Origin: an uncultured Verrucomicrobiota bacterium
Lineage (GTDB): Bacteria; Verrucomicrobiota; Verrucomicrobiia; Palsa-1439
Direction of reading: 5' to 3'
Length of the DNA stretch: 64,000 bases
Assembly (NCBI GenBank): GCA_903825435.1
Contig: CAIKAP010000043.1
Span: forward strand, 282-64,281
Every line of letters begins with the position of its first letter. Within the stretch, counting starts at the first letter, position 1. This document shows positions 1 to 61,401 of this stretch, piece by piece. Below the pieces are notes generated by a model that did no database searches, was not told where the DNA came from, and worked only from the letters and a program-made list of their open reading frames with translations. The translations under genes were made by a program, and so were the position numbers.

Positions 1-15
1 ATTCTCAATAAGTCC

Positions 16-300
16 ATGTTGCCCTACCTGCCGCTGGCCAACTACGATGTGGACCGCGAGACAGCCTCGCTGCTGCCGTTGGAATTGTGCTGGCAGTTCT
101 GCCTCATCCCGTTTGACCAGATCAGCCGTTGTCTTCTGGTCGCCACTGCCAACCCGTTCCAAGCCGCAGCTAAACGCACTGTGGAAGCCGCACTGCAGGC
201 CAACCTGTTCTGGTATGTGGCTGCGCCGGGGGACATTGTCACTGCACTGCGACGGGCGCATCGCCTCGAAGCCAGCGCCAAACCCAACACGAACCCATGA
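16..300 (+). CDS. Partial CDS (5' end outside window) ending in a GspE/PilB N-terminal (T2SSE_N-like) domain; stop overlaps pilB start (ATGA)
   Basis: Translation resembles the N-terminal domain of GspE/PilB ATPases (…LIPFDQISRCLLVATANPF…); no start in window; 4-nt overlap with downstream pilB. Confidence 0.45.
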   Translation: MLPYLPLANYDVDRETASLLPLELCWQFCLIPFDQISRCLLVATANPFQAAAKRTVEAALQANLFWYVAAPGDIVTALRRAHRLEASAKPNTNP

Positions 301-2006
301 AATCCTTCAGCGAAAGAATCACCGATGCTTTGATTGCCGACGGGCTACTGACTCAGAAACAGCTTCAGGAAATCGTTGATATCCAAAAGAAGCAAGGTGG
401 ACGGCTGCTGAAACTGCTCCAAGAACGCCAGGTAGTGTCGGAACAGGACATGATGATCGGCCTCGCCCGCTGCCTCAAGACACCGCCAATCACGTTACCG
501 AAGATGCACGTGCCATCGGAAATCGCCGAGTTGATCCCGAAGGAAATGGCGCAGATGTACAAAATGGTGCCGATAGCGCGCGTGGGCAAGAAGTTGTACG
601 TGGCGATGGCCGATCCGCTCAATGTGCTGGCGATGGACGAACTGCGTCGCGACCGTCCCAATATGGAGATCATCCCACTGATCACCACTGAGAAAGCCGT
701 TGGCGACTTCCTTAACGCCTCCTCCTCCCAAGTCAAGGAAGGTATTGACGAGATTCTTAGGGACGTGGACCTCTCTGACATCGAGATCGCCAAGGATAAA
801 CAGGAGGAAATCAACCTCGACAAGCTCGTCGAGAGCAGCGAGGAAGCGCCTGTCATCAAGCTCGTCAACCTTATGCTCGTTCAGGCGATCAAGGACCGGG
901 CCAGCGACATCCACATCGAACCTTTCGAGAAACAACTCCGCCTACGCTATCGCATTGACGGCGTGCTCTACGATTCGACCGCCCCGCCCAAGTCGATCCA
1001 ATCGGCGTTGACCTCGCGCATCAAGATTATGTCCACGCTCGACATCGCCGAGCGCCGCCTGCCGCAGGACGGACGTTTCCGCATCAAGATCGCCGGACGC
1101 GATGTGGACCTGCGTGTGTCGGTGTTGCCGACAATACACGGTGAGAAGATCGTCCTGCGCGTACTCGACAAGGGCACGCTGAACACGAATTTGGAAAATT
1201 TTGGATTGGATCCCGACGATCTCGCTAAGTTCAAGCAAGCCATCGACGCGCCGCACGGAATGATGTTGATGACGGGACCAACCGGTTCAGGCAAGACTTC
1301 GACGCTGTACGCTGTGCTGACCCAGCTCAACACCCCCGATGTGAACATCGTCACCGTCGAAGATCCCGTCGAGTACCAGATGCTCGGCATCAACCAAGTA
1401 CAGGTCAAACCCGATATCGGACTGACCTTCGCCGGCGGCCTGCGTTCCATCCTGCGCCAAGACCCCGACATCGTCATGGTCGGCGAAATCCGCGACTCCG
1501 AGACCGCTGACATCGCAGTCAAGGCGGCGTTGACCGGCCACTTGGTGCTCTCGACCCTGCACACCAATGACGCCCCCGGCGCCGTCGCACGCTTGGTGGA
1601 CATGGGCATTGAGCCGTTCCTAGTCAGTTCCTCCCTGCTCATGGTCTGCGCCCAGCGCCTTCTTCGCAAGATCTGCCCGCACTGCAAAGAAACCATGCAG
1701 GTTCCTCCTGAAGTCATCAAACGGCTTGGCCTGATCCCCGAAGAGGTCGCTACTAGTAGCTTCTACCGCGGACACGGTTGCGGCCGCTGCAAGGAAACTG
1801 GTTTCATGGGACGCATGGCGATCCTCGAAGTGCTGTCCATTAGTGCGGCCCTGCGCGACCAGATCCTGCACAATACCAGCGCCCAAGCCATCCGCGACGT
1901 GGCGTTGAAAGAGGGGATGAAGACGCTCAAAATGGCTGGTCTCAATAAGGCTAAGCTTGGTCTCACATCGTTGGACGAAGTCCTTCGCGTCACCGGTAAC
2001 GTGTAG
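297..2006 (+). CDS. pilB: Type IV pilus assembly ATPase PilB (GspE family)
   Basis: 569 aa with an N-terminal GspE_N domain; Walker A GPTGSGKTST; Asp/His boxes; C-terminal tetracysteine motif CPHC…CGRC; homology runs full length. Confidence 0.9.
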   Translation: MKSFSERITDALIADGLLTQKQLQEIVDIQKKQGGRLLKLLQERQVVSEQDMMIGLARCLKTPPITLPKMHVPSEIAELIPKEMAQMYKMVPIARVGKKLYVAMADPLNVLAMDELRRDRPNMEIIPLITTEKAVGDFLNASSSQVKEGIDEILRDVDLSDIEIAKDKQEEINLDKLVESSEEAPVIKLVNLMLVQAIKDRASDIHIEPFEKQLRLRYRIDGVLYDSTAPPKSIQSALTSRIKIMSTLDIAERRLPQDGRFRIKIAGRDVDLRVSVLPTIHGEKIVLRVLDKGTLNTNLENFGLDPDDLAKFKQAIDAPHGMMLMTGPTGSGKTSTLYAVLTQLNTPDVNIVTVEDPVEYQMLGINQVQVKPDIGLTFAGGLRSILRQDPDIVMVGEIRDSETADIAVKAALTGHLVLSTLHTNDAPGAVARLVDMGIEPFLVSSSLLMVCAQRLLRKICPHCKETMQVPPEVIKRLGLIPEEVATSSFYRGHGCGRCKETGFMGRMAILEVLSISAALRDQILHNTSAQAIRDVALKEGMKTLKMAGLNKAKLGLTSLDEVLRVTGNV

Positions 2007-2101
2007 TAGGTTGCATATTTGAGATTTTTCTCTCATTGGAGCATGCTAACGCATAGAATGAGGTATGTGGCACAGCCGTTGCTAAAACAAAAGCACGACC
2101 A

Positions 2102-3547
2102 ATGAAATTCCCGTTCTTCCAACCTAATCGCCCGTCACCACATGCACACACTCCACCCCGCGCCCCCGCCACCACGCACACATCTACACCATCGCCCGCA
2201 CCCACTCCCCCTCGACGCACAGAACCCGCTACGCCACCTGTCAAACCTCCCACCGGCTCCTTACGCAGCGCACCGCTGGCTGGAGTGGACTTGCCCACGC
2301 ACATCAAGTTCAAACTCCAATCCCTGTTGACCATCCTGCCAGATAACGTGCTGGCCCACCCGCGCGCCGAAATGCCTCAGCACATCAACGTGGACCAGCT
2401 CATCCCACTGCCAACCGATTTGATCATCTCCCAACTGGCAGGCGCCCGTGTTACTGTACCGCTTGTGATCATCCTCGACGCAATTCCGACGGAAGCCCTC
2501 AGTCCATCACGACCCAACCTCGACGATGCGCCAGTAACGTTGCCCCTACACGAGATTGTCGCCCAACTACCTCCCCGTTTCTTCACTACCCGCCTCAGTC
2601 AACGCACCGTCGCGGAAATCGCACCCGACATTCCCAGCCCCTTCCAAGAACGCAAACCCACACCGCCGCTGCCAACTCATATCGAAATTCCGGTGCCGTT
2701 ACCTGCGCACGTTGCGGCCGAGGCGTCGTGCGTCGCCGTCCCTATTCCACCCCCACCAGAACCCGTCATCGAGACAGTGACGGTCAAGCCTATGACGGAA
2801 CCAACACCGGTCACGGCCGCCGCACCGGTCATTCCGCCGCGGGCACCCGAACCAATCGAAGCAATCGCTCCCGTTGCGCCAGAACCGTCACCCGAACTTG
2901 AGCCCGAGTTTGAGAAACCAACGCTCCCAGCAGGGCCTTTGGACGAGAAGATGTTCCTCATCAACTTGAACCGTTGCAGCGTCGAGGACCTGCTTTCCAT
3001 CAAGAACGTCGGCCCGGCGCTGGCCAAGCGCATCATCGCTTGGCGTACGGAACACGGGCGCTTCAACTCCATCGAGGACCTGCGTCAGGTATCCGGCGTC
3101 GGACGCAAGACGTTCCGCGCATTAACCGGCGCAAAAGCCGAGGCGCTCAACCGCCTGCTCGGCGTCGCCGCAGACCGCGAATTGTCGCTGCAAGAAGTCG
3201 TGCGACTGACCAGTAAGCTGCCCGGCCTCCAAGGCTGCATGTTGGCCACCTCCGACGGCCTCTTACTAACCGGCGAAGTGTCACCACATCTCGACAAGGA
3301 AGCCATCAGCGTCTTTGCCCCACAACTGTTCAAGCGCGTCGCCCGCTACACAAAGGAACTCAAGGTCGGACAGGTCAGCCGCTTCACCATCTTCACTGAC
3401 CAGCAACCCGTCAGCATCTTCGGCGCGGAAGACGTCTTCCTCGTCATTTTCCACGACTCCAAACACTTCAGCAAACGACTACTACGCCAATGCGAGCGCA
3501 TCAGCTTTGAAGTCGCACGACTCTGTCGCCAACGCACCACCGTCTAA
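2102..3547 (+). CDS. Three-part protein: Pro-rich low-complexity N-terminus, ComEA-like helix-hairpin-helix region, C-terminal Roadblock/LC7 (MglB-like) domain
   Basis: N-terminal approx 280 aa are P/T/A-rich; the middle (…SVEDLLSIKNVGPALAKRIIAWRTEHGRFNSIEDLRQVSGVGRKTFRAL…) resembles the ComEA HhH; the C-terminal approx 110 aa (LPGLQGCMLATSDGLLLTGE…VIFHD) has Roadblock/LC7 sequence features. Confidence 0.6.
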   Translation: MKFPFFQPNRPSPHAHTPPRAPATTHTSTPSPAPTPPRRTEPATPPVKPPTGSLRSAPLAGVDLPTHIKFKLQSLLTILPDNVLAHPRAEMPQHINVDQLIPLPTDLIISQLAGARVTVPLVIILDAIPTEALSPSRPNLDDAPVTLPLHEIVAQLPPRFFTTRLSQRTVAEIAPDIPSPFQERKPTPPLPTHIEIPVPLPAHVAAEASCVAVPIPPPPEPVIETVTVKPMTEPTPVTAAAPVIPPRAPEPIEAIAPVAPEPSPELEPEFEKPTLPAGPLDEKMFLINLNRCSVEDLLSIKNVGPALAKRIIAWRTEHGRFNSIEDLRQVSGVGRKTFRALTGAKAEALNRLLGVAADRELSLQEVVRLTSKLPGLQGCMLATSDGLLLTGEVSPHLDKEAISVFAPQLFKRVARYTKELKVGQVSRFTIFTDQQPVSIFGAEDVFLVIFHDSKHFSKRLLRQCERISFEVARLCRQRTTV

Positions 3548-3558
3548 GAAGCTCTCGT

Positions 3559-4245
3559 ATGGCCATCATCAACTACGCAAACAAAGAAGTTCAGTTCAAG
3601 ATCGTCTTTTACGGTCCCGCACTCTGCGGAAAGACTACCAACCTCGCCTACATCCACAGCCAGATCACTGAGACCAACAAAGGCGAACTCGTCTCCTTAG
3701 CCACCGCAGCCGACCGCACCCTCTTTTTCGACTTCCTTCCACTCAACGCCATCGTCATCCGCAATTTCAAGACCAAGTTCCAGCTCTACACCGTCCCTGG
3801 TCAGGTCATCTACAACGCCACCCGCCAACTCGTCCTCCGCAGCGTTGACGCCGTCGTCTTCGTCGCCGATTCCCAGTGGGACAAGATGGAGGAAAATATC
3901 GAGAGTTTCCGTAACCTCGACGAGAATCTCGCCCGCCAGGGACTCAGCCTCGACACCATCCCCTACGTCATCCAGCTCAACAAACGCGACATGCCCAACG
4001 TCGCTCCCATCCACTACCTCGACTTCATCCTCAATGACCGCGCCGTCTGCGTCCCCAGCTTCGAAGCCTCCGCCACCACCGGCCAAGGCGTCTTCGACAC
4101 CCTCAACACCGTCTCCCGTATGTTGCTGGTAAAATTCGCCCGCGACGCCGAAGCCGCCGCCTACGTCAAATCGCAGCCCACCCCCGCCGCCAGCCCTATG
4201 GACGGTGTCGCCGCCGGGCTACGTCAACCTCAGGCCGCACGCTAA
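3559..4245 (+). CDS. mglA: Ras-like small GTPase MglA (mutual gliding motility protein A family)
   Basis: Near full-length similarity to Myxococcus MglA: P-loop GPALCGKTT, TDRTLFFDF switch region, YTVPGQ, NKRD; 228 aa. Confidence 0.85.
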   Translation: MAIINYANKEVQFKIVFYGPALCGKTTNLAYIHSQITETNKGELVSLATAADRTLFFDFLPLNAIVIRNFKTKFQLYTVPGQVIYNATRQLVLRSVDAVVFVADSQWDKMEENIESFRNLDENLARQGLSLDTIPYVIQLNKRDMPNVAPIHYLDFILNDRAVCVPSFEASATTGQGVFDTLNTVSRMLLVKFARDAEAAAYVKSQPTPAASPMDGVAAGLRQPQAAR

Positions 4246-4246
4246 C

Positions 4247-4741
4247 ATGCAATCCACCCCCATCGTCACCATTGCCGCTGCTGAGAAATTCCTCAAGACC
4301 TTGGAGGAGTTTCTCAACCACTCCGAGGCATTTTTCGCCCTGATTATTGATCGCGGCGGCACTATCCTCAGCCAGAGTGGCCGCCCGCCCGACGGTACCG
4401 ACATCACCATCCTCGCCGCACTGGCCGCCGGCAGTTTCGCCGCAACACGCGAACTCGCCACCCGCGTCGGCGAATCCGAGTTTAACGCCCTTTACCAGCA
4501 AGGCAGCCACTTCCACATCCTTATGAACGCCGTGGACGACGACACCATGCTCGTCACCATCTTTAGCACTCAGACCACCGTCGGCCTCGTCCGCTTCTAC
4601 TCCGCTCGCACCAGCGAACAAATCGCCATCCAGATGCAGGAACTCCGCGCCGATTGCGTTGACGCACCCCTTGTTTTCACCGAGGCAGACCTAAACACCG
4701 CCTCCCAGATCTTCCGGGATACCACCGACAAAGCTGTGTAG
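4247..4741 (+). CDS. mglB: Roadblock/LC7 domain protein, MglB-like (putative GAP for MglA)
   Basis: ATG 1 nt after mglA stop; similarity to MglB (…LAAGSFAATRELATRVGESEF…VTIFSTQTTVGLVRFY…). Confidence 0.8.
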   Translation: MQSTPIVTIAAAEKFLKTLEEFLNHSEAFFALIIDRGGTILSQSGRPPDGTDITILAALAAGSFAATRELATRVGESEFNALYQQGSHFHILMNAVDDDTMLVTIFSTQTTVGLVRFYSARTSEQIAIQMQELRADCVDAPLVFTEADLNTASQIFRDTTDKAV

Positions 4742-4849
4742 CCGCTGCTTAATGTTCCCGAAGTCTTTGTCGAGGAGAACTATTTGACTCTAAAAATGAA
4801 CGCCGTTCCACGACCGACGAAACCCTGAAAAATCAATTTCTCCAATTAA

Positions 4850-4923
4850 TGGAGCGGGCGATGGGAATCGAACCCACCTCACCAGCTTGGAAGGCTGGCG
4901 CATTACCACTATGCTACGCCCGC
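4850..4923 (-). tRNA. tRNA-Gly (anticodon UCC)
   Basis: Reverse complement folds as a cloverleaf: acceptor GCGGGCG/CGCCCGC; anticodon stem CCAGC/GCTGG with loop CTTCCAA; T-loop GGTTCGATTCC; CCA encoded. Confidence 0.9.
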
Positions 4924-4967
4924 CTCGGCGTACGCGCGCAACAATCTGCCCGAACCCCGCATTGCCG

Positions 4968-6110
4968 TCAAGCGTTCTCCTGCCGCAAATGAATCGTCTG
5001 CGTCGGAAAGGCAAACTCCAATCCGGCAGCATCGAAGCGACGCTTGATCTCGACATTGATCTGTCCTAGCGCGTACAGCGATTCTTTTTCCTCGGTGCTC
5101 CGGCACCAGTACACGATGAAAATGTCCAGCGAACTGGCTGAGTAGTCTCGCCAATATACCCATACATCATGCGTCTGGGGATGCGCGCGAAAAATTTCTT
5201 CCAAGATTTTTACCGCCTCCTGCATTCGTTCCGCCGTCGTGCCATACGTCAATCCAAGCGTCATTGCGCGACGGATTGTCGGCCGCGATGAAATGTTTAC
5301 GATGCCCGCATCCACCACGACCTTGTTGGGGATCGTCACCAAGTGTCCGTTCGGCGTCCGTATGCGCGTGCTGCGCAGGCCGATCTCCTCCACCGCACCT
5401 TCAAACTCCTGAATCTTGACGTTGTCACCGACGCGAAACGGACGATCCACCAGAATTGCCACCGAACCAAAGATGTTCGCCAATGTATTTTGCGCCGCCA
5501 ACGCCACTGCAATGCCGCCCACCCCCAGCCCCGCGATCACACTCGTAATCGGAAACCCAAGATACTGCGCCGCCGAAAGCGCTCCAGTGATGATCACAAA
5601 CACCTTCAACGTCCGGCTCATGATCGGCACCATCATCCCTGCCAACTTCGGATCTCCTGTAAATAACCGGTCCTTCGATGCGTCCAACAACAAGTCCAGA
5701 AGCCGCATCACCACGTAAATCACAGTCGTCGCCATGCCCAGCGCGAACAAAATCGTCAACCCGTTCTCCACCACACGCGGCCAATCGAACACCTGTAGCC
5801 CCACCTTCAACACCAGAAACACCACCACAATCTTGACCGGCCGGTGCAAAATCTCCAGCAACTTGTCATCCAAATTCGTCACCGTCTTTGTCATCAGCCG
5901 CCTCACCCATCGCGTCATGACAAAGTTCACGACTTGCGCCACGACGAACGCCATCACGATCCACAACGCCGTCGCCACATACTGCCACAACGGCCTCCCC
6001 AATACCTTCGCGTGCAATATCCCCACCTGATCTAAGCCAAAACTTGATTCCGACCACACCTGTTGCACCGCCTGCGTGCTTGTCGTTGCTCCAAGTAATA
6101 ATGAGATCAT
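4968..6110 (-). CDS. Small-conductance mechanosensitive channel (MscS family)
   Basis: MscS signature region (…FRVGDNVKIQEFEGAVEEIGLRSTRIRTPNGHLVTIPNKVV…). Start chosen at MISLLLG, which has a GGAGG RBS; the Arg/Cys-rich N-terminal extension in the ORF table is implausible. Confidence 0.8.
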   Translation of the reverse strand: MISLLLGATTSTQAVQQVWSESSFGLDQVGILHAKVLGRPLWQYVATALWIVMAFVVAQVVNFVMTRWVRRLMTKTVTNLDDKLLEILHRPVKIVVVFLVLKVGLQVFDWPRVVENGLTILFALGMATTVIYVVMRLLDLLLDASKDRLFTGDPKLAGMMVPIMSRTLKVFVIITGALSAAQYLGFPITSVIAGLGVGGIAVALAAQNTLANIFGSVAILVDRPFRVGDNVKIQEFEGAVEEIGLRSTRIRTPNGHLVTIPNKVVVDAGIVNISSRPTIRRAMTLGLTYGTTAERMQEAVKILEEIFRAHPQTHDVWVYWRDYSASSLDIFIVYWCRSTEEKESLYALGQINVEIKRRFDAAGLEFAFPTQTIHLRQENA

Positions 6111-6135
6111 ATTTTCCTCCACCAGATCGCGCCAA

Positions 6136-7422
6136 TTATACGGGCGCACCATCCAACTGCAAGCCGCACGGCGCCAACACCGCCTCCGACATCCCGTGCA
6201 ACAGCTTCTTGTCCGACGGGCAAATCGTCGCCAACACCCCGCCGAGTTTCGTCTCCTTCCCATCCACGAAATAATACGGACACAACCGCACCCGCCCTTT
6301 GAACTCCCTCACCTCATTCGCCTCAAAATCAAACCACCGTGCCGGCACCAGTCGCGACTTCCCGAACCGCTGCAAGATGAACGGATTCGACGAGAAACTC
6401 GTCACCGCCCTCTCAATTGCCGCCGCCCACTCGCCCGCCGACAAGTCTTGCCCCACCGACACACTTCGACCTCCCCACGCCTGCTCGTGAAATCCAGACA
6501 TCTTCAACACCAACTCCCGCTGCTTCTGCGAAAACTTAGCCATCTCCCGCCAGTCGTTGATACCGAGTTCTGGAATCACTGCATGCGGAGGCAACGGTGT
6601 TGGGTCCACGATCCACGTCCGCGGAAAAATCCGCCGCAAATGCGCCGTCGTCTCCGCACCCAGATGCTCCCGCCAGAACGCCTCCAGTTGCGGCTGCCAT
6701 AGAAACGCGAACAACAACTTCTCCTCCAGTTGTGGTTTCGGCGGCGGCGTCACATTTCCAGCAATGATCTCCCAACCGTTCGGCACGTTCGCCAAATCGA
6801 ACAACTCGAAAAACCGGTAGAACGTCCCCACGTTTTCCAATGTCGCCACTTCTTCCGGTCGCACCACGCGAAAGCCGACCTGCTGTCCCAGCCACTCCAT
6901 CTCCGGCCGGTACGTCCCCGCCTCCTCGCTCACCACGACAACGCCGCGTTCACCGAGAATCGCCGTGAACCCTTCCATCATCCCATGCGAACCGCCAACG
7001 ATGTCGTCGTCGAGTTCGCCGTACGTCTTGCCGAGCCAGCCGGTCAACCCGATGCCGCCCGGCACGCTGTCGAGTTCCGAGATGAAGAAACCGTCGTCGC
7101 TCAGAATCACATCGGGCCGAATCACGCGCGGCACCGCGCTCTTGAACCGCTCCGACCGCGACAACGCGATCAACTCCGCCGGTTTACCGGCGTCGAGGTA
7201 ATCCGCGATCCACTTCGGTTGTTTCCCCGCGACACTGTGCCGGTAAAGCGTATTGCAGGCACGATAGAACGCGAGCAATTGCGGCCCCAGCGCCTCCAAC
7301 TCCGTGACAAGTGAAGCGGGAAGCGGAAAGGCCGTCGGCGCAATCCGCCACGTCAACCCGGCAAACAGCCCGCCAGACGGAAGCTGGTCGCGCACATAAT
7401 GGGCGCGTTCGGCGGCGTTCAT
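6136..7422 (-). CDS. Conserved hypothetical protein, ATP-grasp-like (glutathionylspermidine-synthase / circularly permuted ATP-grasp-like)
   Basis: 428 aa continuous ORF with good coding character; ends 4 nt inside the proA start; family assignment from overall pattern only. Confidence 0.4.
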   Translation of the reverse strand: MNAAERAHYVRDQLPSGGLFAGLTWRIAPTAFPLPASLVTELEALGPQLLAFYRACNTLYRHSVAGKQPKWIADYLDAGKPAELIALSRSERFKSAVPRVIRPDVILSDDGFFISELDSVPGGIGLTGWLGKTYGELDDDIVGGSHGMMEGFTAILGERGVVVVSEEAGTYRPEMEWLGQQVGFRVVRPEEVATLENVGTFYRFFELFDLANVPNGWEIIAGNVTPPPKPQLEEKLLFAFLWQPQLEAFWREHLGAETTAHLRRIFPRTWIVDPTPLPPHAVIPELGINDWREMAKFSQKQRELVLKMSGFHEQAWGGRSVSVGQDLSAGEWAAAIERAVTSFSSNPFILQRFGKSRLVPARWFDFEANEVREFKGRVRLCPYYFVDGKETKLGGVLATICPSDKKLLHGMSEAVLAPCGLQLDGAPV

Positions 7423-10445: not shown

Positions 10446-11696
10446 CTACTCAAAACGCAAGGCTTCAATCGGATCAAGCCGGGCAGCTTTGCGCGCCGGG
10501 TAGAACCCGAAGAAGATGCCGATGGCGGCGCTGAAGACGAAGGAAACGACGACAGCGGTCATGGGAACAAGCGTAGGCCAACCGGCAACCTTGGAGAGAA
10601 GCTCGGCGGTACCAAGGCCAAGGCCGATGCCGATAAGCCCACCGAGAGAACTAAGGGTGACAGCCTCAACGAGAAATTGGAGAAGGATGTCGCGGGACCG
10701 GGCGCCGACAGCCATGCGAATACCGATTTCACGAGTGCGTTCAGTGACGCTGACAAGCATGATGTTCATAATACCGATGCCACCTACGATCAACGAGACA
10801 GCAGCGATGGCAGCAAGCAAGAGGCTCATGATTCGCGAAGTGGCAGTCGCCATTTGGGCGATTTCTTCTTGAGTACGAACAGTAAAATCGTCGTCCTTCC
10901 CTTCGGCGATACGGTGGCGCTGGCGTAGAAGATCATTAATCTGTTCGCGGACGGTGTTCAAGTCTTCAAAGGAATCGGTTTGCACGAGCACGGTACGAAG
11001 CATAGTGCCGCCCATAAGGCGTTTCATGGCGCTGGTGTAGGGCATGATGATAACATCGTCCTGGTCGGTCCCCATGATGGAAAGGCCTTTCGGAGCCAGA
11101 ACGCCGAGGATGATGAACGGCACGTTGCTGATGCGAACGATATGACCGACGGGATCTTCCTCGCCAAACAACTGCTCAGCCACAGTTTTGCCGATGACAC
11201 AAACTTTGGTAGCGCCTCGCACGTCTTGATCGGTGAACCCAGCCCCGTTGATAAGTTCCCACTGACGAATTTCGAAGTAAGAGGCGCTGCTGCCAACAAT
11301 ACTGGTAAACCAATTTTGGTTACCGGCGGCTACTTGAAAACTGCGGCGGACTTCAGGGCTGACACCGACGACATCCGAAATTTCAAGACGGATGGCTTCG
11401 ACATCGGGCACACTGAGTGTACCAGCGCTTAACCAACCGGAATTTACGCCGCGGCTGCTGAAATTACCTGAGAAGACAAGGACAACGTTGCGACCTAGGC
11501 TGGCAATCTGAGCTTCGACTTGATTCTTGGCACCTTGGCCAACGCCGACCATGGTGATGACAGCGCCGACGCCGATGATGATACCAAGCGCAGTGAGGAC
11601 AGAACGAAGTTTGTTCCGGCGTAAGGCGCGGAGGGCGACACGGATGATGGAAAGGATGCGCAGGAGCCAGTAGCTGGTTTCGACGAGGAAGTTCAT
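10446..11696 (-). CDS. ABC transporter permease, MacB/FtsX family
   Basis: N-terminal TM helix, large periplasmic domain, C-terminal FtsX-like 3-TM bundle; start set at MNFLVETSY… so that it abuts the ATPase stop. Confidence 0.8.
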   Translation of the reverse strand: MNFLVETSYWLLRILSIIRVALRALRRNKLRSVLTALGIIIGVGAVITMVGVGQGAKNQVEAQIASLGRNVVLVFSGNFSSRGVNSGWLSAGTLSVPDVEAIRLEISDVVGVSPEVRRSFQVAAGNQNWFTSIVGSSASYFEIRQWELINGAGFTDQDVRGATKVCVIGKTVAEQLFGEEDPVGHIVRISNVPFIILGVLAPKGLSIMGTDQDDVIIMPYTSAMKRLMGGTMLRTVLVQTDSFEDLNTVREQINDLLRQRHRIAEGKDDDFTVRTQEEIAQMATATSRIMSLLLAAIAAVSLIVGGIGIMNIMLVSVTERTREIGIRMAVGARSRDILLQFLVEAVTLSSLGGLIGIGLGLGTAELLSKVAGWPTLVPMTAVVVSFVFSAAIGIFFGFYPARKAARLDPIEALRFE

Positions 11697-13719: not shown

Positions 13720-14385
13720 CTATGTTACACCGTCAAACCACCTCGCAAGTTCCTCCACACTCAATTCGTCCAGCCGCCGTACGATGCGGTCGGCTGCGAC
13801 CAGCGTTTCGGACGAATGTGTCGTCGCCACACCGACGACTTTCATACCGGCACGGCGCGCAGCCTCAATGCCCACATGCGCATCTTCAAACACGACGCAG
13901 CGAGATGGCATCGTATTCATTTTTTTTGCAGCGAGCAGGAAAACGTCCGGGGCCGGCTTGCCGTGGATGACGTCTTCACTGGAAACGATGGCAGCAAAAC
14001 ATTTCTCGAAACCGATGAAGCCGAGGGTGCAGGTGATGTTTTCGCGGTGGGTCGATGAGGCGATGACGCACGGTACCGACGCCGCGCGCAACGCTTCCAG
14101 CCACACGCCGATACCGGGGAGCGGGGCGATGCCCTGCTCGCGGATGATCTCGCGGTAAAGCGCCTCTTTGCGCAGTGACATGTTTCGGATTTGTTCCGGA
14201 TTCTCAGTCCAGCCAAACAGGTCGGGAATGATCTGTTCATTCTTCATGCCGAAGCTGCGCTTAAAATGACCCGCCGGCAGCGACCGACGCTCCTCGGCGG
14301 CGAGCCGTTCCCAGCTCGCCTCATGTTGGCGCGAGGAGTCAATGATCACGCCGTCCCAATCGAATATGGCAGCCCACGTTGTCAC
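13720..14385 (-). CDS. HAD-superfamily hydrolase (beta-phosphoglucomutase-like)
   Basis: HAD motif I (IFDWDGVIIDS) and motifs II/III present; probable GTG start with AGGAA RBS; the upstream extension in the ORF table overlaps the divergent gene. Confidence 0.65.
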   Translation of the reverse strand: MTTWAAIFDWDGVIIDSSRQHEASWERLAAEERRSLPAGHFKRSFGMKNEQIIPDLFGWTENPEQIRNMSLRKEALYREIIREQGIAPLPGIGVWLEALRAASVPCVIASSTHRENITCTLGFIGFEKCFAAIVSSEDVIHGKPAPDVFLLAAKKMNTMPSRCVVFEDAHVGIEAARRAGMKVVGVATTHSSETLVAADRIVRRLDELSVEELARWFDGVT

Positions 14386-14473
14386 GGGCGGTATTCCTAC
14401 AACGGTTTGCGCGGCGGCGCAAGTGAATCGGAACTTGGCAGCTTCCGTACTTGGCGCTAGAAAGTTGTGGTTA

Positions 14474-16342
14474 ATGAAGAATTTCTGGAACAGAACGCTG
14501 GTGGCGCTCTGGGCGCTGTGCATCCTAGGCGCGCTTGTGGCGCTCGGTGGTGTCGTGGCTGAGTATGCGTTACCGATGTACCTGTGCGGTGCGGCGTTGG
14601 CGCTGGCGTGGGCGATGAAGCTGCTCTGGACGCGGGAGGCGTCGTGGATATGGACGCCGTTGCACGTGCCGGTACTTGGCTTACTACTGTACACGGTAGC
14701 GCGTTACCTCACCGCACCGCTACGACACGAGGCTCACTGGGAACTGTTGCAGGTCGGGCTATACACGCTGGTGTATTTTGTGGCGGCGTTTACGTTCTAT
14801 CGTTCGCAATATCGGACAGTAATCCTAACCGTGTTGATCGTCGCGGCGGTGCTGGAATCGGTGTACGGCTACTGGCAATACGCGACGGGCACCGACACAG
14901 TGTTCTGGTTCATCCGCCCGGCGCAGTACCACGGACGCGCGAGCGGCAGCTACATCTGTCCAAACCACCTCGCCGGCTGGCTGGAGGTGGTGGCACTGGT
15001 GTTACTCGCACAGGTTGTCCTCAATCTGCGCCCGGTGAAATCATTTGAAGGAAGTTTCATCATCAAGCTGCTGGAGTTCACAGCGCTCGGCGCTGTGGCG
15101 GCGGGCCTGGTGGCGAGCGGTTCACGCGGCGGATGGTTCGCGCTGGCGGTCGGCGCGGTGGCGTTCTGGCTCTGGATGTGGCGAACAGGGCTGTTGCCTG
15201 GGCGTGCGGCTGATGCCGCGCTGGTGTTATTGGTGCTGGCCGGTGTGGCGGCGCTGGCGATCCCAAAGGTGCGTGAAGGTTGCAGCGCGTTGCTATCGGT
15301 CAACCTCGATTATACCTTCGACTACGACGCACTCCGGTTCCGCGACACCAACCTCGAAGGTCGCTCGCAGATGAGCCGGGCCACGTGGCAGATGTTTCTC
15401 GATCATCCGTGGTTCGGCACCGGCCCCGGCTCGTGGCGCTGGTTTCATCCGCAATACCGAATCGAATCGCTGGCAACCGTCAGCCCGCACTACGCCCACA
15501 ACGACCTGTTCCAGTTCGCCGCCGAGTACGGCGCGGTCGGCGTTGCGTTGCTCGCCGCGTTGCTGGGCTGTTTCTTCCGTCAGGCGCTTATACTGACACG
15601 CCGCCAGCACGCCAACGACGAGCGTGCCATCGCACTCGGCAGCGCGCTCGCCGTCTGCGCCCTGCTCGCGCACTCGCTGGTGGACTTCAACATGCACATC
15701 CCCGCCAACGTCCTATTGATCGTCACCCTTGCCGGTTTGACCGCTAGTCTAAGCGACGACGAGGGTCGTTTCCGACGACGTCGCCTGCCGCCCGCCGGCA
15801 AGGCGGCGCTCGCTGTCGTCCTGCTGCTCGTGTCGGCCGCCATCGCGTGGAACGGATTCCACCTCTGCTCAGCCCAACGCCACGTCCTCGCCGGACGCGG
15901 TGCTCAGGCCGCCCGCGAATGGAATGAAGCCGTCCATTGTTATAGGAAAGCAATCGCGGACGCGCCACACTTTGCCGAGGCCTACGCCCGCATCGGCGAA
16001 ACCTATCTACTCCAACACGACCCATCCTCCGCCACCAACGCGCTCGCCGCCTACCGGCGCGCGTTGGAACTGAACCCGCGCGACGCCACCGTCGTGATGT
16101 GCATCGCGTTGACCTACGAAACACTCGGCGACACCAACCAAGCCTTCGCTGCTTTCCAACGCGTCTTCGCGCTCGACCCGTACAACGCCGACTGCTGGAT
16201 CGAGTTCGGGCGCTTCCAGGAACGCCTTGGCAACCTCACCGGAGCCATGATCACTTATGAGAAGGCCGCCCACGCCAATCACCCCGAAGCCAACCTCCTC
16301 CTCCAACAACTCCGCGAACGGATTCAGAATCAAAACCGTTGA
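14474..16342 (+). CDS. O-antigen ligase (Wzy_C) family membrane protein with C-terminal TPR repeats
   Basis: Multi-TM region with an SRGGW motif, then TPR-like repeats (AEAYARIGETYLL…ALELNP…); start chosen at MKNFWNRT…. Confidence 0.65.
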   Translation: MKNFWNRTLVALWALCILGALVALGGVVAEYALPMYLCGAALALAWAMKLLWTREASWIWTPLHVPVLGLLLYTVARYLTAPLRHEAHWELLQVGLYTLVYFVAAFTFYRSQYRTVILTVLIVAAVLESVYGYWQYATGTDTVFWFIRPAQYHGRASGSYICPNHLAGWLEVVALVLLAQVVLNLRPVKSFEGSFIIKLLEFTALGAVAAGLVASGSRGGWFALAVGAVAFWLWMWRTGLLPGRAADAALVLLVLAGVAALAIPKVREGCSALLSVNLDYTFDYDALRFRDTNLEGRSQMSRATWQMFLDHPWFGTGPGSWRWFHPQYRIESLATVSPHYAHNDLFQFAAEYGAVGVALLAALLGCFFRQALILTRRQHANDERAIALGSALAVCALLAHSLVDFNMHIPANVLLIVTLAGLTASLSDDEGRFRRRRLPPAGKAALAVVLLLVSAAIAWNGFHLCSAQRHVLAGRGAQAAREWNEAVHCYRKAIADAPHFAEAYARIGETYLLQHDPSSATNALAAYRRALELNPRDATVVMCIALTYETLGDTNQAFAAFQRVFALDPYNADCWIEFGRFQERLGNLTGAMITYEKAAHANHPEANLLLQQLRERIQNQNR

Positions 16343-55094: not shown

Positions 55095-57396
55095 TTATAG
55101 AAAGCAAGAAACCGACCCAAAAGGAAAAACAGTCATGAGAAACATCAACCGCGCCCTACTGACCGCAGCCATGGTGTGCTGCGCCATGACCTTGAAGCCT
55201 GTCGTCCGTGCCGAAGGCGACGCCAGCACCAAGTCTGCAACGGATGCCACCAAGCCCGCCGGCGGCGGGGAACGGGGCGAACGTTTCCGTGAGCGGATGA
55301 AAGAACTGTCTGAGAAGCTTGGCTTGACTGAGGAACAGAAAGAAAAGCTCAAGCCAATCTTCCACGCGGAAATGGAAAAGTTGAAGGAGTTGCGCGCCGA
55401 CACCAAGTCGCCGCGCGGTCCCAACACAACCACGTGCACCACTTCGTAAGGGAGATCGGCAAGCGGTTGCAACGCGGCCACCAGCGATTCAGGACTGTTG
55501 ACGGTTTTCCCGCGCAACAACTTCGTCGGCGTCACACCATCGAGCTTGTCAATCGCCTCCTGCCGCGTCTCCGGATTCGCCCGCCATACCGCCACGTCCG
55601 GATTCACCGCCTTCCCGTTCGCCGGATCCGTGTTCGCTACTGCGGCATTGGCTTCGCGTTCGGATCGTCCACCCAACGCTCCTCCTGCACCGCGTACTTG
55701 AACCCCTTTCCCGCCTGCAACGGTTTCACCTTCGGCGACGGAACCAGTTTTTCCAGCGGCGCGCCCTTCGGCAAGCCGCCCATCGGTTGTATCGGTTTCG
55801 AGTCCATGATTCTCCTTTACCACATCGCCCGGAACTTCTCCCTTGAAAACATCGGCTTTCGTGAGTATGGTTTTGCCATAGCCTGATTGGGAGTAAACTG
55901 TGGGCAATTGGAGCCCACGAGTCAGAAACCAATCACGGCTCTTATCTTTATCCCAATACCGCAATCGCCCTTCTTCCATCCATCGTCCAAATGCAGCGTT
56001 GTCGTCTTTTCCGTAGGCACTGGCGACACGGTTGATCTCGTAAGCACCAGCGCGTTGATCCAGATGCACCGCCGCCACCAACGTCTTGCCGTTGTACTCC
56101 AGTTGCGTCATCACCACCAACGCATTGCCCCCGCGACTCGAACCAAACACCATCAACGGATCAGCGAGTGCGGTCGGAAGTTGCTTCAGCATTCCCACTG
56201 GCACCCCATGCTTTAGGGCATTCACGTCTTTGCGGATTGTCCCCGCCGCCATCGTCATCGCCAACGGACGCGCTCCTAATGCCTGTAACACGGCAGGAGT
56301 CTCGCCAATCGGCACCTGCACCTTCTCATCCAATGATTCAAGCGCCCGATCCACCAACGGCGAGAATTCCTGTTCTTCCTGTTTCGCCCGCGTCAGTTCA
56401 TTTGCCAGCGACTTCACGCCATACCCCGGCCCCGTTTCCCGCAACGTCCCGCTCTCCTCCGGTGGTAATTCACCACCGGCCTCCGTCAGGTCGCGCACCG
56501 CCTTGTACCGCTCCAGCAACTTCGTCAACGCTGCCGCGCCTGCCTCCCGATCCGTCGACACAAAATACCGCTGCTTGAAATTGATGTTCTCACCAAACAG
56601 CCCGAACTTCTCCATCTGTTTTTCACTGGGAGGTTCATACCCGTAATCCAACTCGACGCGCTGCTCGCCGTGGACTCGGCTTTGCGTCAGCTTCCAGCCG
56701 TTGTCCAACTCGATCTCCGATCCGCCCCCCTGCACCATGTCGAATATCTCGCCCGGCGTCGCATCCTTCAGCGGCGTACCGATCCCTAGCCGTTGCTTCA
56801 ACGCCGTCACCGCGTCCGGGTTCACCAGCAACCCGACCAGGTTGCGCCCATCATTCGTTTTCACGCGGACAATCTTGTTGCCTACGTCGCCCGTGTGAAA
56901 CACCTTGTCGTAAATCGGGAACACCGCGCCCGTCAGCATCGCCGCCGTCTGCGTCCTGTAATCCGGCAACGCCGCCAGTTCCTTCTCCCACAACTTTTGC
57001 GCTACTGTCCCACGGATCGGTTCGTTGTGATGGTACTCTTCGGCGCCGTACTCAAACCTATTCACCACGTGCGACTTCGCCGCTGGTGACGTGAGAACGT
57101 ACTGCGTCTTGCCATCCGAGTTCACCCGTTCCCGCGCCAGGTACACGCGACCACTCTGTTTGTTCCGAGCGAATGTCACCTTCGACGGCTCCCGCTTGTT
57201 CGCCGCCTGCGCCGATCTCCACGTCCCCCGTGATCCGCACCAGCATGTCCACCGGGTACACGTCCGTCTTCAACCGCTTCCGCGCATCCGTAACAGCCTT
57301 GCACTTGTCCGACAGCGCCTTCGATAACGCCAACACCTCCGCGTCTTCGAGTCCTTCACATACCGCCCTCGCGTTCTCCTTGGATTTCTTGCCCAT
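55095..57396 (-). pseudogene. Phage-associated large protein (approx 700 aa), apparently frameshifted near its 5' end; the ORF's last approx 110 codons (55095-55428) are read-through, not real coding sequence
   Basis: The 694-aa ORF (55095..57179) plus a 112-aa ORF (57058..57396) in another frame that starts 55 bp after the TerL-C stop; the C-terminal approx 110 aa are low-complexity and overlap the Spy-like gene. Confidence 0.45.
55135..55449 (+). CDS. Spy/CpxP-like LTXXQ periplasmic protein, probably 3'-truncated at a mobile-element junction
   Basis: Signal peptide; LTEEQKEKL motif; ends in a non-homologous tail (…RGPNTTTCTTS) that overlaps a phage-derived ORF on the opposite strand. Confidence 0.45.
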   Translation: MRNINRALLTAAMVCCAMTLKPVVRAEGDASTKSATDATKPAGGGERGERFRERMKELSEKLGLTEEQKEKLKPIFHAEMEKLKELRADTKSPRGPNTTTCTTS

Positions 57397-57450
57397 ATAC
57401 CCGTTCCCTTAGCAAGTTGGATTCCGACTTATTTAGAAATCTCCAATCCC

Positions 57451-58455
57451 TCATCCTTCCCCCGGCCGCGCCAGCCCCGTCCATCCGCTTTGCAAAGGCT
57501 TCCTCCGTCCTGCCTCCACCAATCCCAGATCCAACCGATTCATCTCCACACGCTGGACCCGTTTCCCATCCTGCACGACGAACTTCAACCGGAAGATGTT
57601 CGCCAGCGCGTACCGGAACGCATCGCAGATATGCTCGTAAAACCCATCCTTCAGCGGGAACCCGTCCTTGTCGCGCACCAAGCCGTTTCTCAACCCGTCC
57701 ACCAGGTGCTTGCAGTCCACCGGGTCAATCTCCAGCCAGCCCGCCTTAATCACCCACTGCACGATCTGAATCCCTTCGTCCACCGACATATCCCGCCACC
57801 GCGCATAAACGCCCCTCGTTTGCAGAACCTCGATGGAAGTGTCCGGTGAGCGGTCATCGTGCTGGTTTCCCGCCGGGTCGCAATAGTCCTCAATTCGCGC
57901 CCCTGGACATACGTTCGTCGCAAACGGTAGGACGTGTTTGTCAGCAAACTCGTCCACCAACAGTTCCCGCGCTATCACTTCCTTTAACGCATACACTCGA
58001 AACGTGCCGTCCTCCCTCGATTCAACCTGTAGGTGAATCGCCGCAGGCATCCTCCAACCAAAATCCCAACCGCGAAACAACGTCAACCACGGCCGATACA
58101 CCTGGGGACGCACCGTCACGCTGCCGAAATCGCAATAGACCGGCTTCCCTGGTGTGACGGTGAAGTCAATCCCGTACTCCTGCCGCCGAGAATAGATCGG
58201 CATGTCCTTCGATATATCGCCCACATACGCCCTCCCCTTCTCCGTCAGTGGAGACTTGTCTTTGTCCGCAGTGTGATGCAGCCTCACGTGCACGAACCCA
58301 TTGCGTTCCCACCGATTGATCCCGTACGCCACATGTTCGGCGCCGAGCTTCGCGCCATTCTCACGCTGCCACCAATGCGAATCCAGCAAGTCCGCCGACG
58401 TCGCCGGATCAACCACCGCATCCTTCACCGCCACGAGTTTTTTTCGCATACTCAC
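57451..58455 (-). CDS. Phage terminase large subunit, C-terminal nuclease half
   Basis: TerL nuclease-domain pattern (…CDPAGNQHDDRS…; acidic catalytic residues); ATGA overlap with the N-terminal half. Confidence 0.7.
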   Translation of the reverse strand: MSMRKKLVAVKDAVVDPATSADLLDSHWWQRENGAKLGAEHVAYGINRWERNGFVHVRLHHTADKDKSPLTEKGRAYVGDISKDMPIYSRRQEYGIDFTVTPGKPVYCDFGSVTVRPQVYRPWLTLFRGWDFGWRMPAAIHLQVESREDGTFRVYALKEVIARELLVDEFADKHVLPFATNVCPGARIEDYCDPAGNQHDDRSPDTSIEVLQTRGVYARWRDMSVDEGIQIVQWVIKAGWLEIDPVDCKHLVDGLRNGLVRDKDGFPLKDGFYEHICDAFRYALANIFRLKFVVQDGKRVQRVEMNRLDLGLVEAGRRKPLQSGWTGLARPGEG

Positions 58456-59174
58456 CCCGTCACGTCGTCATAGCCGAGTTGGCAGAATAGGTTGTTCGCG
58501 CCCTTTGCCGAACTCATCATCGTTAACTTGCCGTTCCCCGCCAGAGCCGGACGGACCGCCGTCCACACCTTCTCCTGATTCTCCGTGCTCCCCGCCTCGT
58601 CCCACAAATAGAACGCGAACTTCCACTGCCTCGCCTGTTCCGATCCCTCCGGTACTCCCACAATGAACGAGTCCGGATTCTTGCCGTGTTTGATCGTGAT
58701 GATCCCGTCACTCCGATTGTGATACGCTTCAGGCCGCGCAAACCGAGATGGAATCCTCCGCCACATAAACAGGAACCGGCTGTCCAAAAAGATATTCGCA
58801 TCGAGCAGCTTCTTGCTTTGGTAGCCGATGTAAATGCCGGGAATCGTGAGCGCCGCATGCAGATGCACACCCGCCGCCCACCACGTCGCGATCATATCCC
58901 GCGACTTTTCGACGCGGAGACGGTTTGTTCCTTGCCACTGGCGCGTCAGGTACTCCAAATACTCCGCGTCGGGAAACGGCTGTACCGGCTCGATGTGTTT
59001 GAAATGTGCGAACTCGTCGTTCGTGAACGTGGCCGTTGTTAGATACTCCCACGGATCAGACGGCAACGGCTCCTGCCCTGCCGTCACGAACTTCGACAAC
59101 TCAGCCAACGCTTGGCGCCGAAAGCTCTCCGACAATCGCGTCGAACAGGATGGACTTGCACTTAGAACAGGCAC
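58452..59174 (-). CDS. Phage terminase large subunit, N-terminal ATPase half
   Basis: Deviant Walker A of TerL (…LRVEKSRDMIAT…), Walker B/coupling FYLWDEAGS; stops where the nuclease ORF starts. Confidence 0.65.
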   Translation of the reverse strand: MPVLSASPSCSTRLSESFRRQALAELSKFVTAGQEPLPSDPWEYLTTATFTNDEFAHFKHIEPVQPFPDAEYLEYLTRQWQGTNRLRVEKSRDMIATWWAAGVHLHAALTIPGIYIGYQSKKLLDANIFLDSRFLFMWRRIPSRFARPEAYHNRSDGIITIKHGKNPDSFIVGVPEGSEQARQWKFAFYLWDEAGSTENQEKVWTAVRPALAGNGKLTMMSSAKGANNLFCQLGYDDVTG

Positions 59175-59703
59175 ATCTTTGGATCACAAGCGCGATGCGT
59201 TCCGACCACGCCTTCGCCGCCACCTCGATCTCCACTCGATCCTTCAACTTGCCCGTCAGTTTGTAGAAGAGTTCCACCGCCCGCAACTGCGTGTCGTTGT
59301 CCGTGTGGTCGCCCAGGGACAGCGCCTGATAATACTTCGTCACCTTCGCGTCGATCAGGTCGGAGTGTTTCGCCACCACCCGCTCATCCGTCAGCCCCTT
59401 CTCCGTCAACAGGTCCTCAATCCGCCGCTGCACCTTCGGATTATCGAACGTCCGCTTCTGTTGCTTCTCCGCCGTCGACCGTTTGTACCCGCCCTTGCGC
59501 ATCGCCTCCGCCTTGTTCCCCTTCGCGTCGCCAACGAACGCCACCGCCGTCCGCTCCTGCTTCAATGGCAACTGTGCACGCGCCTTCACAACTCCGCACC
59601 GCGCCGGTTTCCGCCGCGCCGCCCGCTTCTTGCCAACTTGACCGATTTGCCGTTTTGCCGATTTGCCTATTTGTGTTCGTCCCATGCCCATCCTGTATAG
59701 CAA
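59101..59703 (-). CDS. Phage terminase small subunit
   Basis: TerS pattern (…GYKRSTAEKQQKRTFDNPKVQRRIEDL…ERVVAKHSDLIDAKV…); lies upstream of TerL. Confidence 0.65.
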   Translation of the reverse strand: MLYRMGMGRTQIGKSAKRQIGQVGKKRAARRKPARCGVVKARAQLPLKQERTAVAFVGDAKGNKAEAMRKGGYKRSTAEKQQKRTFDNPKVQRRIEDLLTEKGLTDERVVAKHSDLIDAKVTKYYQALSLGDHTDNDTQLRAVELFYKLTGKLKDRVEIEVAAKAWSERIALVIQRCACSKCKSILFDAIVGELSAPSVG

Positions 59704-60173: not shown

Positions 60174-60225
60174 ATGAAAGGCTGACCGATTGCATTGCGC
60201 TGAGCAAGTATCGTGCACTCCAGCG

Positions 60226-60927: not shown

Positions 60928-61259
60928 GTGGGGATAGCGCGCTGGGGTGGCGGGGGAACAGGGAGAAGATGCAACCGGTGGTGCCAGTAATGCCACGAAC
61001 GGTTGTCAAAAAGACCGGGCGGGGCGGATCGCAACGCTTCACGGAATACAGATTTACCATGATGATCGAGGACAAAACAGATGTCCGCCCACGTTCCGAA
61101 CACCATGACCCGGCAGAGAAAAATCGGGGTGTTATCAAGCGTTGTGTCAGCGGATTGCCACCAGCACACCCGCCGCGCGATGGAGGTCAGCCGTTCAGAA
61201 CCCTTTTCTGTTGTCAGCGTGTTCTTCACAACTTTTTGGATCCAACAGAAGTATAACAA
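60924..61259 (-). CDS. Putative cognate antitoxin of the AbiEii-like gene (unrecognised family)
   Basis: The ORF stop overlaps the AbiEii start as ATGA; start site uncertain; weak coding signal. Confidence 0.25.
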   Translation of the reverse strand: MLYFCWIQKVVKNTLTTEKGSERLTSIARRVCWWQSADTTLDNTPIFLCRVMVFGTWADICFVLDHHGKSVFREALRSAPPGLFDNRSWHYWHHRLHLLPVPPPPQRAIPT

Positions 61260-61401
61260 ACCGGGCGTGAATGTCGAGCTTGGCTCTGTGCAACAGATGC
61301 GGTGCGATGAATGGGCAGCGCATCGGCATTCGGGACAAGAAGGTTTCCGCGATCAAATTGCCGACGCTTGACACCCGGTAGCGTTATGCTACCTTTTTGG
61401 C

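Follow-up and report, generated by a model that had tools for sequence, protein, structure and literature searches.

Linkage of pilB to mglA, mglB and a gene for a multidomain Roadblock protein in a conserved operon of Verrucomicrobiota

The first 4741 nucleotides (nt) of a 64,000 nt stretch of DNA from an uncultured Verrucomicrobiota bacterium (GenBank assembly GCA_903825435.1, contig CAIKAP010000043.1; the whole stretch is hereafter called the window) were found to include genes for the type IV pilus (T4P) extension ATPase PilB, the Ras-like GTPase MglA and its partner MglB. Comparison with related genomes places them in a five-gene operon that encodes, in order, a protein with tetratricopeptide repeats (TPR) and an MshEN domain, PilB, a large protein with a C-terminal Roadblock domain, MglA and MglB, and this operon is a lineage trait of Verrucomicrobiota. 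The name X-Roadblock is used here for the family to which the third protein belongs. It is probable (about 0.6) that the operon couples the MglA switch to the engagement of PilB, and confidence in the roles of the individual proteins is much lower. MglA, MglB, PilB and the control of pili by MglA are already known. The operonic linkage to pilB, the presence of X-Roadblock as the constant neighbour of MglA in the Planctomycetes-Verrucomicrobia-Chlamydiae (PVC) bacteria, the TPR+MshEN protein and a Group 1-type MglA in Verrucomicrobiota appear to be undescribed.

The five genes of the window all lie on the plus strand, in the order MshEN gene, pilB, X-Roadblock gene, mglA, mglB (Table 1), and every open reading frame (ORF) listed here by a first-pass annotation of this DNA was present in the same position and orientation. 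They are translationally or closely coupled. The stop codon of the MshEN gene and the ATG of pilB overlap by 4 nt (ATGA at 297-300), and the distances between pilB, the X-Roadblock gene, mglA and mglB, likewise read from the sequence, are 95, 11 and 1 nt, the last of these as first annotated. These short gaps and the overlapping stop and start codons indicate co-transcription and translational coupling. On the 3' side of mglB, a convergent tRNA-Gly gene (4850-4923, minus strand) is followed by a minus-strand gene for an MscS channel, and the operon therefore ends at mglB. A promoter and terminator scan of positions 1-5300 gave counts no higher than the shuffled expectation and was uninformative.

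Table 1. Genes of the cassette, and domains of the X-Roadblock protein, in the window
Feature	Coordinates	Strand	Basis
MshEN-domain gene, 3' part	1..300	+	PF05157 MshEN (GspE/PilB N-terminal-like), E 4.7e-13
pilB, predicted type IVa pilus extension ATPase, 569 aa	297..2006	+	PF00437 T2SSE E 1e-140, plus MshEN
Gene for X-Roadblock protein, 481 aa	2102..3547	+	Pfam, AlphaFold model, homologue alignment; 149 homologues
X-Roadblock N-domain, aa 61-165	2282..2596	+	Predicted four short strand-helix units; no known structural or Pfam relative
X-Roadblock ComEA-type helix-hairpin-helix HHH_3, aa 287-342	2960..3127	+	PF12836 E 2.3e-17
X-Roadblock C-terminal Roadblock/LC7 domain, aa 364-479	3191..3538	+	Robl_LC7 E 1e-3 and Foldseek
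mglA, predicted Ras-like small GTPase, 228 aa	3559..4245	+	E 8e-68 to MglA structures
mglB, predicted Roadblock-fold protein, 164 aa	4247..4741	+	Robl_LC7 (PF03259) E 7.5e-10

The arrangement was followed in other genomes by a GTDB scan, with one genome per species and the MglA protein as the query, from which the 80 closest MglA loci (given L numbers here) were taken. The taxon-named records among them are from Verrucomicrobiota (Verrucomicrobiia and Chthoniobacterales), with one each from Kiritimatiellia, Lentisphaerae and a 'PVC group bacterium', and three records are labelled merely 'bacterium' or 'uncultured bacterium'. Gene presence was scored by tBLASTn using the proteins of the window as queries, and 50 loci with at least 6.5 kb of upstream sequence were informative for the upstream genes. 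The MshEN gene and pilB were found upstream of mglA on the same strand at 40 of these 50 loci, and at 4 further loci a partial PilB is cut by the contig edge. A Roadblock protein ending just before mglA is encoded at 71 of 74 loci, and MglB is encoded just after mglA at 66 of 79. The junctions are also shared, as the 4 nt overlap of the first gene with pilB was found in L003, L009 and L045, and a gap of ~11-40 nt before mglA recurs in other loci.

The same gene order in 40 of 50 loci indicates that the arrangement is not due to chance. Across the loci, identity to the proteins of the window falls from 89% to 54% for PilB and from 87% to 62% for MglA, with the gene order intact in Chthoniobacterales, where PilB identity is 54-60%. 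In an all-against-all clustering of ORFs, each flanking gene family was found in at most 26 of the 80 loci; at L083, for example, AdoHcyase, pyrF and GHMP kinase genes lie to one side of the cassette, with unrelated genes to its other side. An order that is kept down to 54% PilB identity while the flanks turn over points to a conserved operon rather than to residual synteny, and given this range of identities it is unlikely that the adjacency of pilB and mglA is confined to a shallow clade. The proposal in the first-pass annotation that a pilB-linked MglA/MglB module characterises the lineage is thus supported for Verrucomicrobiota, with the neighbourhood retained in relatives.

The product of mglA is identified by its sequence as a bona fide Group 1-type MglA with its catalytic residues intact, in agreement with its annotation as a clear MglA orthologue. 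It is 56% identical to MglA of Myxococcus xanthus, and its matches to solved structures included M. xanthus MglA (5ymx and 6h17, E 8e-68) and Thermus MglA (3t12, E 1.3e-67). The P-loop (GPALCGKTT), the intrinsic arginine finger R53, T78 and Q82 in the motif TVPGQ, and the NKRD motif are all present, and the numbering of R53, T54, T78, G81 and Q82 is the same as in M. xanthus MglA. Residues K25, T26, R53, T54, T78, G81, Q82 and N141-K142-x-D144 are conserved in 81 of 81 MglA sequences. Thr78 of MglA stands where Ras has Asp57. Relative to M. xanthus MglA, the protein of the window has a C-terminal extension of ~30 amino acids (aa), and an extension of 10-35 aa is present in all 81 sequences. 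Codon 21 of mglA (window 3619-3621) specifies Ala, as in 80 of the 81 PVC sequences, whereas M. xanthus MglA has Gly21, corresponding to G12 of Ras.

MglB is the GTPase-activating protein (GAP) of MglA, and the usual gene order is mglBA, whereas here mglB lies downstream of mglA. The gene annotated as a canonical mglB is predicted to encode an orthologue of this GAP, as the product matched the MglB structures 1j3w, 6izw, 6h5b and 3t1r with E values of 1e-13 to 2e-12. The sole NCBIfam match was also to an MglB model (NF052242, GTPase-activating protein MglB; E 3.8e-19), at 69.3 bits, which does not reach the equivalog cut-off of 200. At one locus (L076, coordinates 10620-11480), a fusion joins MglB to a pair of CDGSH iron-sulfur zinc-finger motifs (PF09360, E 1e-16), which might give the GAP a redox input.

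The product of pilB is assigned as a type IVa PilB orthologue because it is collinear with PilB over its full length and scores higher against PilB than against GspE, the ATPase of type II secretion. Its best solved relatives, both matched over the full length, were Geobacter PilB (562 bits) and M. xanthus PilB (3jc8; 556 bits, residues 5-564 against 2-559), and the best match to a GspE structure was 441 bits over residues 80-566 only. Residues 7-30 of PilB (window 315-386) form a degenerate version of the MshEN-type cyclic di-GMP (c-di-GMP) motif RLGxxLLxxGLLxxxxLxxxLxxQ. Ala or Thr replaces Gly at position 3 of this motif in 29 of the 29 cassette PilBs that match a relaxed form of it, and Gly was found at that position in 0 of the 45 cassette PilBs examined. 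The NCBIfam model for the c-di-GMP motif scored 29.4 with PilB of the window, against a cut-off of 38.

In the source genome, the first gene of the operon differs from that in its relatives. The complete gene, as seen in the 64,290 bp source contig and also in assemblies L001 and L002, encodes 132 aa with one MshEN domain, and in-frame stops are present upstream of this ORF in L001. At all 43 of the related loci that carry the gene, the product is ~300-336 aa long and consists of a TPR-like N-terminal half and a C-terminal MshEN domain. Pfam matches to TPR_14 and TPR_19 were obtained with the L009 protein (TPR_14, E 7e-5) and weaker ones with that of L039. The TPR-like part was not found anywhere in the 64 kb window. 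Upstream of the ATG of the first gene, similarity to the closest relative (L003) persists for ~50 nt and is then replaced by AT-rich unrelated DNA, of which the window contains no second copy. In each of five independent assemblies the sequence breaks off 80-183 nt upstream of this gene, suggesting an inserted repeat or mobile element. The simplest reading of these sequences is that the first gene here is a 5'-truncated remnant, interrupted or truncated by a repeated element in the population, and the 132 aa product may or may not be made. What had been annotated as an extra GspE_N-type domain protein overlapping the start of pilB does have the MshEN domain and the 4 nt overlap, but would be what is left of a TPR+MshEN protein. 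Because the locus of the source genome lacks the TPR half, the TPR-MshEN branch of any pathway that uses this protein may be impaired or split there.

The third gene encodes the X-Roadblock protein, and those of its 149 homologues with a named source are all from metagenome-assembled genomes of Verrucomicrobiae/Verrucomicrobiia. The protein begins with MKFPFF and has proline-rich disordered linkers, a folded N-domain, a helix-hairpin-helix (HhH) domain and the C-terminal Roadblock domain. An N-terminus of the form M(K/R)(L/F)PFF is common to most homologues (for example MRLPFFRSSK), with the variants MAFSFSNLFKSK, MFNWIKNLTK and MPFLHWFKKK in distant members and MFSKLFGG in Lentisphaerae. Automatic gene callers begin the gene at GTG 2285, giving a product of 420 aa; the conserved MKFPFF N-terminus shows that the true start is ATG 2102 (481 aa). 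In the AlphaFold model, built with 108 homologues, the predicted local distance difference test score (pLDDT) is >90 for residues 61-165 and 290-478, and the stretches with ~30% Pro are disordered. The homologues in Chthoniobacterales are 600-1240 aa long and have no detectable HhH domain. They keep the N-terminal motif and the C-terminal Roadblock domain, and a match to the N-domain was obtained in a minority of these loci.

Pfam Robl_LC7 matched the X-Roadblock protein weakly (residues 364-449, E 1e-3), and the Roadblock fold of its C-terminal domain was confirmed with the predicted structure, for which Foldseek gave a probability of 1.0 and target-normalised TM-scores (TMt) of 0.75-0.82 to Asgard Roadblock, p14/LAMTOR2 and MglB structures. 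A profile of the Roadblock domain made from 25 diverse family members matched Asgard Roadblock, dynein LC7 and LAMTOR2. It gave no match to MglB at E <= 1, and none at this threshold to MglC, for which the presence of a chain in the searched copy of the PDB was unconfirmed. BLASTP of the X-Roadblock protein against MglB of the window likewise revealed no similarity (E 0.92). Sequence comparison therefore lends no support to an mglB paralogue or mglC as the identity of this gene. The first-pass annotation had flanked MglA with two MglB-like Roadblock proteins; a Roadblock fold is indeed encoded upstream of mglA, but it is not MglB-like and accounts for only the last ~120 of the 481 residues of what was described simply as a Roadblock-domain protein.

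The HhH domain also matched the comEA models TIGR01259 and TIGR00426 (49.2 bits with the latter, cut-off 53.1) and the ComEA structures 8dfk and 8dss (E 6e-12). The third gene was nevertheless rejected as a candidate comEA, as the HhH domain is internal, there is no export signal, the full-length comEA model TIGR01259 is failed (58.6 bits, cut-off 152) and the homologues in Chthoniobacterales have no HhH domain. The N-domain was sought exhaustively among 1.84 billion proteins, and 54 representative clusters were recovered with 1-5 copies per protein, all of them in the X-Roadblock family except for a repetitive false positive (P0129). A word-indexed homologue search with the N-domain gave no matches.

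A mechanism by which the operon might act can be outlined. MglA would alternate between GTP- and GDP-bound states with MglB as the GAP, as in Myxococcus and Thermus, and the place and time of PilB docking onto the pilus machine would be set by MglA-GTP. The two accessory proteins encoded in the operon, and not the SgmX/FrzS/SopA network specific to Myxococcus, would mediate the coupling. The TPR half of the TPR+MshEN protein may read MglA-GTP, like the TPR effectors SgmX and Bd2492, with the MshEN half engaging PilB or its docking site. X-Roadblock could serve as a tethered platform, in which the aromatic and basic N-terminal peptide would attach to the membrane or to a component of the machine, with the proline-rich linkers as spacers. 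The LC7-type domain, either dimeric or in a pair with MglB, would bind MglA as a scaffold, a co-regulator or a partner that resembles guanine nucleotide exchange factors (GEFs). More speculatively, the HhH domain may add binding of DNA or the nucleoid in one clade. The fullest form of this proposal is a minimal, self-contained pathway from GTPase to pilus motor, in which TPR-MshEN reads MglA-GTP and, by mimicking the PilB N-terminal domain with its second half, directly gates the docking of PilB, X-Roadblock regulates MglA as the member of a new regulator class (GEF-like or co-GAP, and Ragulator-like) tethered by its peptide, and the cytoplasmic HhH domain reads the nucleoid as a polarity cue in one clade. 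So complete a scheme is distinctly unlikely to be right in all its parts; if true, it would provide the physical connection of MglA to PilB that is missing in Myxococcus, and a third component of the MglA/MglB system found throughout PVC bacteria.

Several observations weigh against a coupling of MglA to PilB of this kind. Control of PilB by the MglA module is read only from gene association and operon structure, and pilB is the sole pilus gene found in the 64 kb window, in which no pilC, pilM-Q, pilT or pilin gene lies. The 12 loci L065-L075 and L080, which are related to those of Chthoniobacterales, encode X-Roadblock and MglA without the TPR-MshEN gene, pilB or mglB, and the loci of Kiritimatiellia and Lentisphaerae have the X-(HhH)-Roadblock gene in divergent orientation to mglA-mglB and again no pilB. 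The loci without pilB indicate that MglA need not act only on PilB, and the first-pass view of a module dedicated to the pilus motor does not strictly hold. Absence of the HhH domain from the Chthoniobacterales proteins indicates that this domain is not essential to the core mechanism, and the role suggested for the N-terminal peptide is a guess from its composition. Residues 107-125 of X-Roadblock (window 2420-2476; LIISQLAGARVTVPLVIIL) have a mean Kyte-Doolittle value of 1.99, in the range of membrane segments, and could in principle form one; the AlphaFold model places them inside the soluble N-domain with pLDDT >90. Finally, the pilB product scored 666.3 bits with the NCBIfam equivalog model for PilB (TIGR02538), just under the cut-off of 675.65, and 636.4 bits with the GspE model TIGR02533, which passes the cut-off of 630.25 and covers residues 80-566 only.

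The alternative that survives best is that MglA/MglB and X-Roadblock make up a general cell-polarity module of PVC bacteria, next to which pilB has been inherited without any special coupling. Such a module would govern several polar processes, such as an ExbBD/TolQR-type motor, Tad pili or division. The 12 loci with X-Roadblock and MglA in the absence of pilB and mglB have the same downstream genes, for ExbB, ExbD, TonB-like, GuaB-like and FabF proteins, as those that often follow mglB in Chthoniobacterales. They also share an upstream gene for a 253 aa protein with the Chthoniobacterales cassette loci, and have NtrC-type and RpoN genes upstream. Consistent with a broader role are the loci of Kiritimatiellia and Lentisphaerae, the control of both pili and gliding by MglA in M. 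xanthus (PMC2910265, PMC11135422), and the wide variation in the neighbourhoods of Group 1 MglA reported by Wuichet and Sogaard-Andersen (PMC4316618). However, simple inheritance of adjacent genes does not readily explain an order that survives deep divergence (PilB 54-89% identical) as the flanks turn over, the short gaps and overlapping stop and start codons, or the presence in the cassette of a protein with a PilB-N-terminal-like domain (43 of 43). This explanation is considered possible but unlikely. What stays invariant across PVC bacteria is the pairing of X-Roadblock with MglA, and pilB and the TPR-MshEN gene joined this pair, or were retained with it, in a large Verrucomicrobial clade. 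Taken as a whole, the interpretation offered by the first-pass annotation stands for the identity of MglA and the conserved neighbourhood and fails for the likeness of the upstream protein to MglB and for strict dedication to the pilus.

A role in DNA uptake, with PilB driving a competence pilus, the HhH domain binding incoming DNA and MglA/MglB tuning transformation, would account for the ComEA-type domain (HHH_3, E 2e-17) and for ComEA structures being its best sequence matches. This is highly improbable, as ComEA is periplasmic, whereas here the HhH domain lies between a cytoplasmic-type Roadblock domain and proline-rich linkers in a protein with no signal peptide, and is missing from Chthoniobacterales despite an intact cassette; no other competence genes were found in the window. 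Least credible is that the ATPase is GspE and the GTPase module governs secretion, an identity that was dropped despite the GspE model being passed and the PilB model narrowly missed, because the PilB model scores higher and matches end to end (residues 8-566 against 2-562 of 564), full-length PilB structures outscore the GspE structure, and the N-terminal ~80 residues, outside the GspE match, contain the MshEN-type motif typical of PilB and MshE.

Coupling of MglA to PilB, as preferred here, has counterparts in known systems. Among bacterial polarity switches based on a small GTPase, MglA/MglB is understood best. In Myxococcus, MglA-GTP stimulates T4P through the TPR protein SgmX (PMC7668184, PMC7519303, PMC11580455). 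How PilB comes to be recruited by SgmX is described as unknown, and no direct interaction of SgmX with PilB or PilM was detected (PMC11580455). The cassette shares with Myxococcus an MglA with R53, T78 and Q82, an adjoining Roadblock-fold MglB, the theme of a TPR protein with PilB, and an additional Roadblock protein (MglC there, X-Roadblock here). It differs in that the Myxococcus order is mglB-mglA, whereas the order here is X-Roadblock-mglA-mglB with pilB in the same operon, and, unlike the Myxococcus system, the cassette is without homologues of RomR, RomX, RomY, SgmX and FrzS. Also unlike in Myxococcus, the TPR protein of the cassette is short and is fused to a PilB-N-like MshEN domain, and the extra Roadblock protein is large and multidomain, with no detectable sequence similarity to MglB.

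The MglA-MglB pair of Thermus thermophilus is about equally similar to that in the window (E 1.3e-67 and 1e-13). A review, citing Salzer et al. 2015, describes mglA/mglB deletion in Thermus as affecting the localisation of pili at one cell pole, with pili still formed (PMC12024867). No report of PilF linkage, an X-Roadblock protein or a TPR-MshEN partner in Thermus was found in the literature, the genomic context being unchecked. Bdellovibrio bacteriovorus MglA acts on T4P through the TPR protein Bd2492 (PMC3983030), in an MglA-Bd2492-RomR hub in which MglA acts via its TPR partner on T4P and the invasive pole. It can function without MglB, as would the MglA of the L065-L075 variant. The gene for Bd2492 lies with tamAB and away from pilB, and there is no Roadblock partner.

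By both profile and fold, the proteins closest to the C-terminal domain of X-Roadblock are the eukaryotic and Asgard Roadblock/LC7 proteins, including Ragulator (LAMTOR2/p14). Classic Roadblock proteins are dimeric platforms or GEF scaffolds for Rag- and Arf-like GTPases. X-Roadblock is unlike them in having a ComEA-type HhH domain, a novel domain, long proline-rich linkers and a bacterial MglA as its neighbour. With ComEA it shares the HHH_3 DNA-binding module, but it lacks the signal or anchor of ComEA and its HhH domain is internal.

A 2014 survey lists Verrucomicrobiota for Group 5 MglA only (PMC4316618), and pilus or secretion genes do not occur among the mglA neighbours in its supplement. 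Literature on MglA with Verrucomicrobia and T4P, and on Roadblock with HhH and MglA, was searched and no prior description was found. The present loci extend Group 1-type MglA to Verrucomicrobiota, and the X-Roadblock family brings with it a domain that has no solved structural relative. The cassette provides a small set of candidates, TPR-MshEN and X-Roadblock, for the connection of MglA with PilB. The operon may offer a compact model for the coupling of a Ras-like GTPase to the pilus motor, and its value is as a lead for experiments on the link from MglA to PilB.

Further observations concern the surroundings of the cassette. In 24 loci, which include L065-L075, L080, L037, L043, L047, L060, L064 and L077, the genes immediately after mglA or mglB encode ExbB (PF01618), ExbD (PF02472) and a TonB-like protein. 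This may be a link of MglA to a TolQR/ExbBD-type motor, reminiscent of AglRQS, or mere synteny. In L083 (15109-17465) and 17 other loci, genes for TadE, TadE and Tad/VWA (TadG-like) pseudopilin proteins lie on the opposite strand. These Tad genes are 2.5-4 kb downstream of mglB in the 18 related loci and are absent from the window. In the window, GC skew of the plus strand is strongly negative (-0.2 to -0.39) from 1500 to 7000. As this region runs from the plus-strand cassette into the minus-strand MscS gene and an ORF of 428 aa, the skew is not simply an effect of the coding strand. The 428 aa ORF (6136-7422, minus strand) lies between the MscS gene and proA, with its stop codon overlapping the start of proA; it matched no Pfam family, and only a sub-threshold match to the H-NS C-terminal domain was obtained (E 0.007).

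Elsewhere in the window, a protein of 622-666 aa (14342-16342) combines Wzy_C (O-antigen ligase/PglL-type) with TPR repeats and is encoded next to LpxK and a GT9 heptosyltransferase; candidate roles for it are O-antigen ligase and protein (pilin) O-glycosyltransferase. Towards the far end of the window, a phage-like block (~55100-59550) with a weak Terminase_2 match and a 657 aa MuF_C protein is followed by genes for AbiEii, ParD-like and Zeta-toxin proteins (60200-62500), and the region is probably a prophage remnant or an island. A short ORF at 63.6 kb, beyond a tRNA-Glu gene, had the look of an integrase N-terminus and was set aside for want of Pfam support; the tRNA-Glu gene itself is located at 63496-63571, near the contig end.

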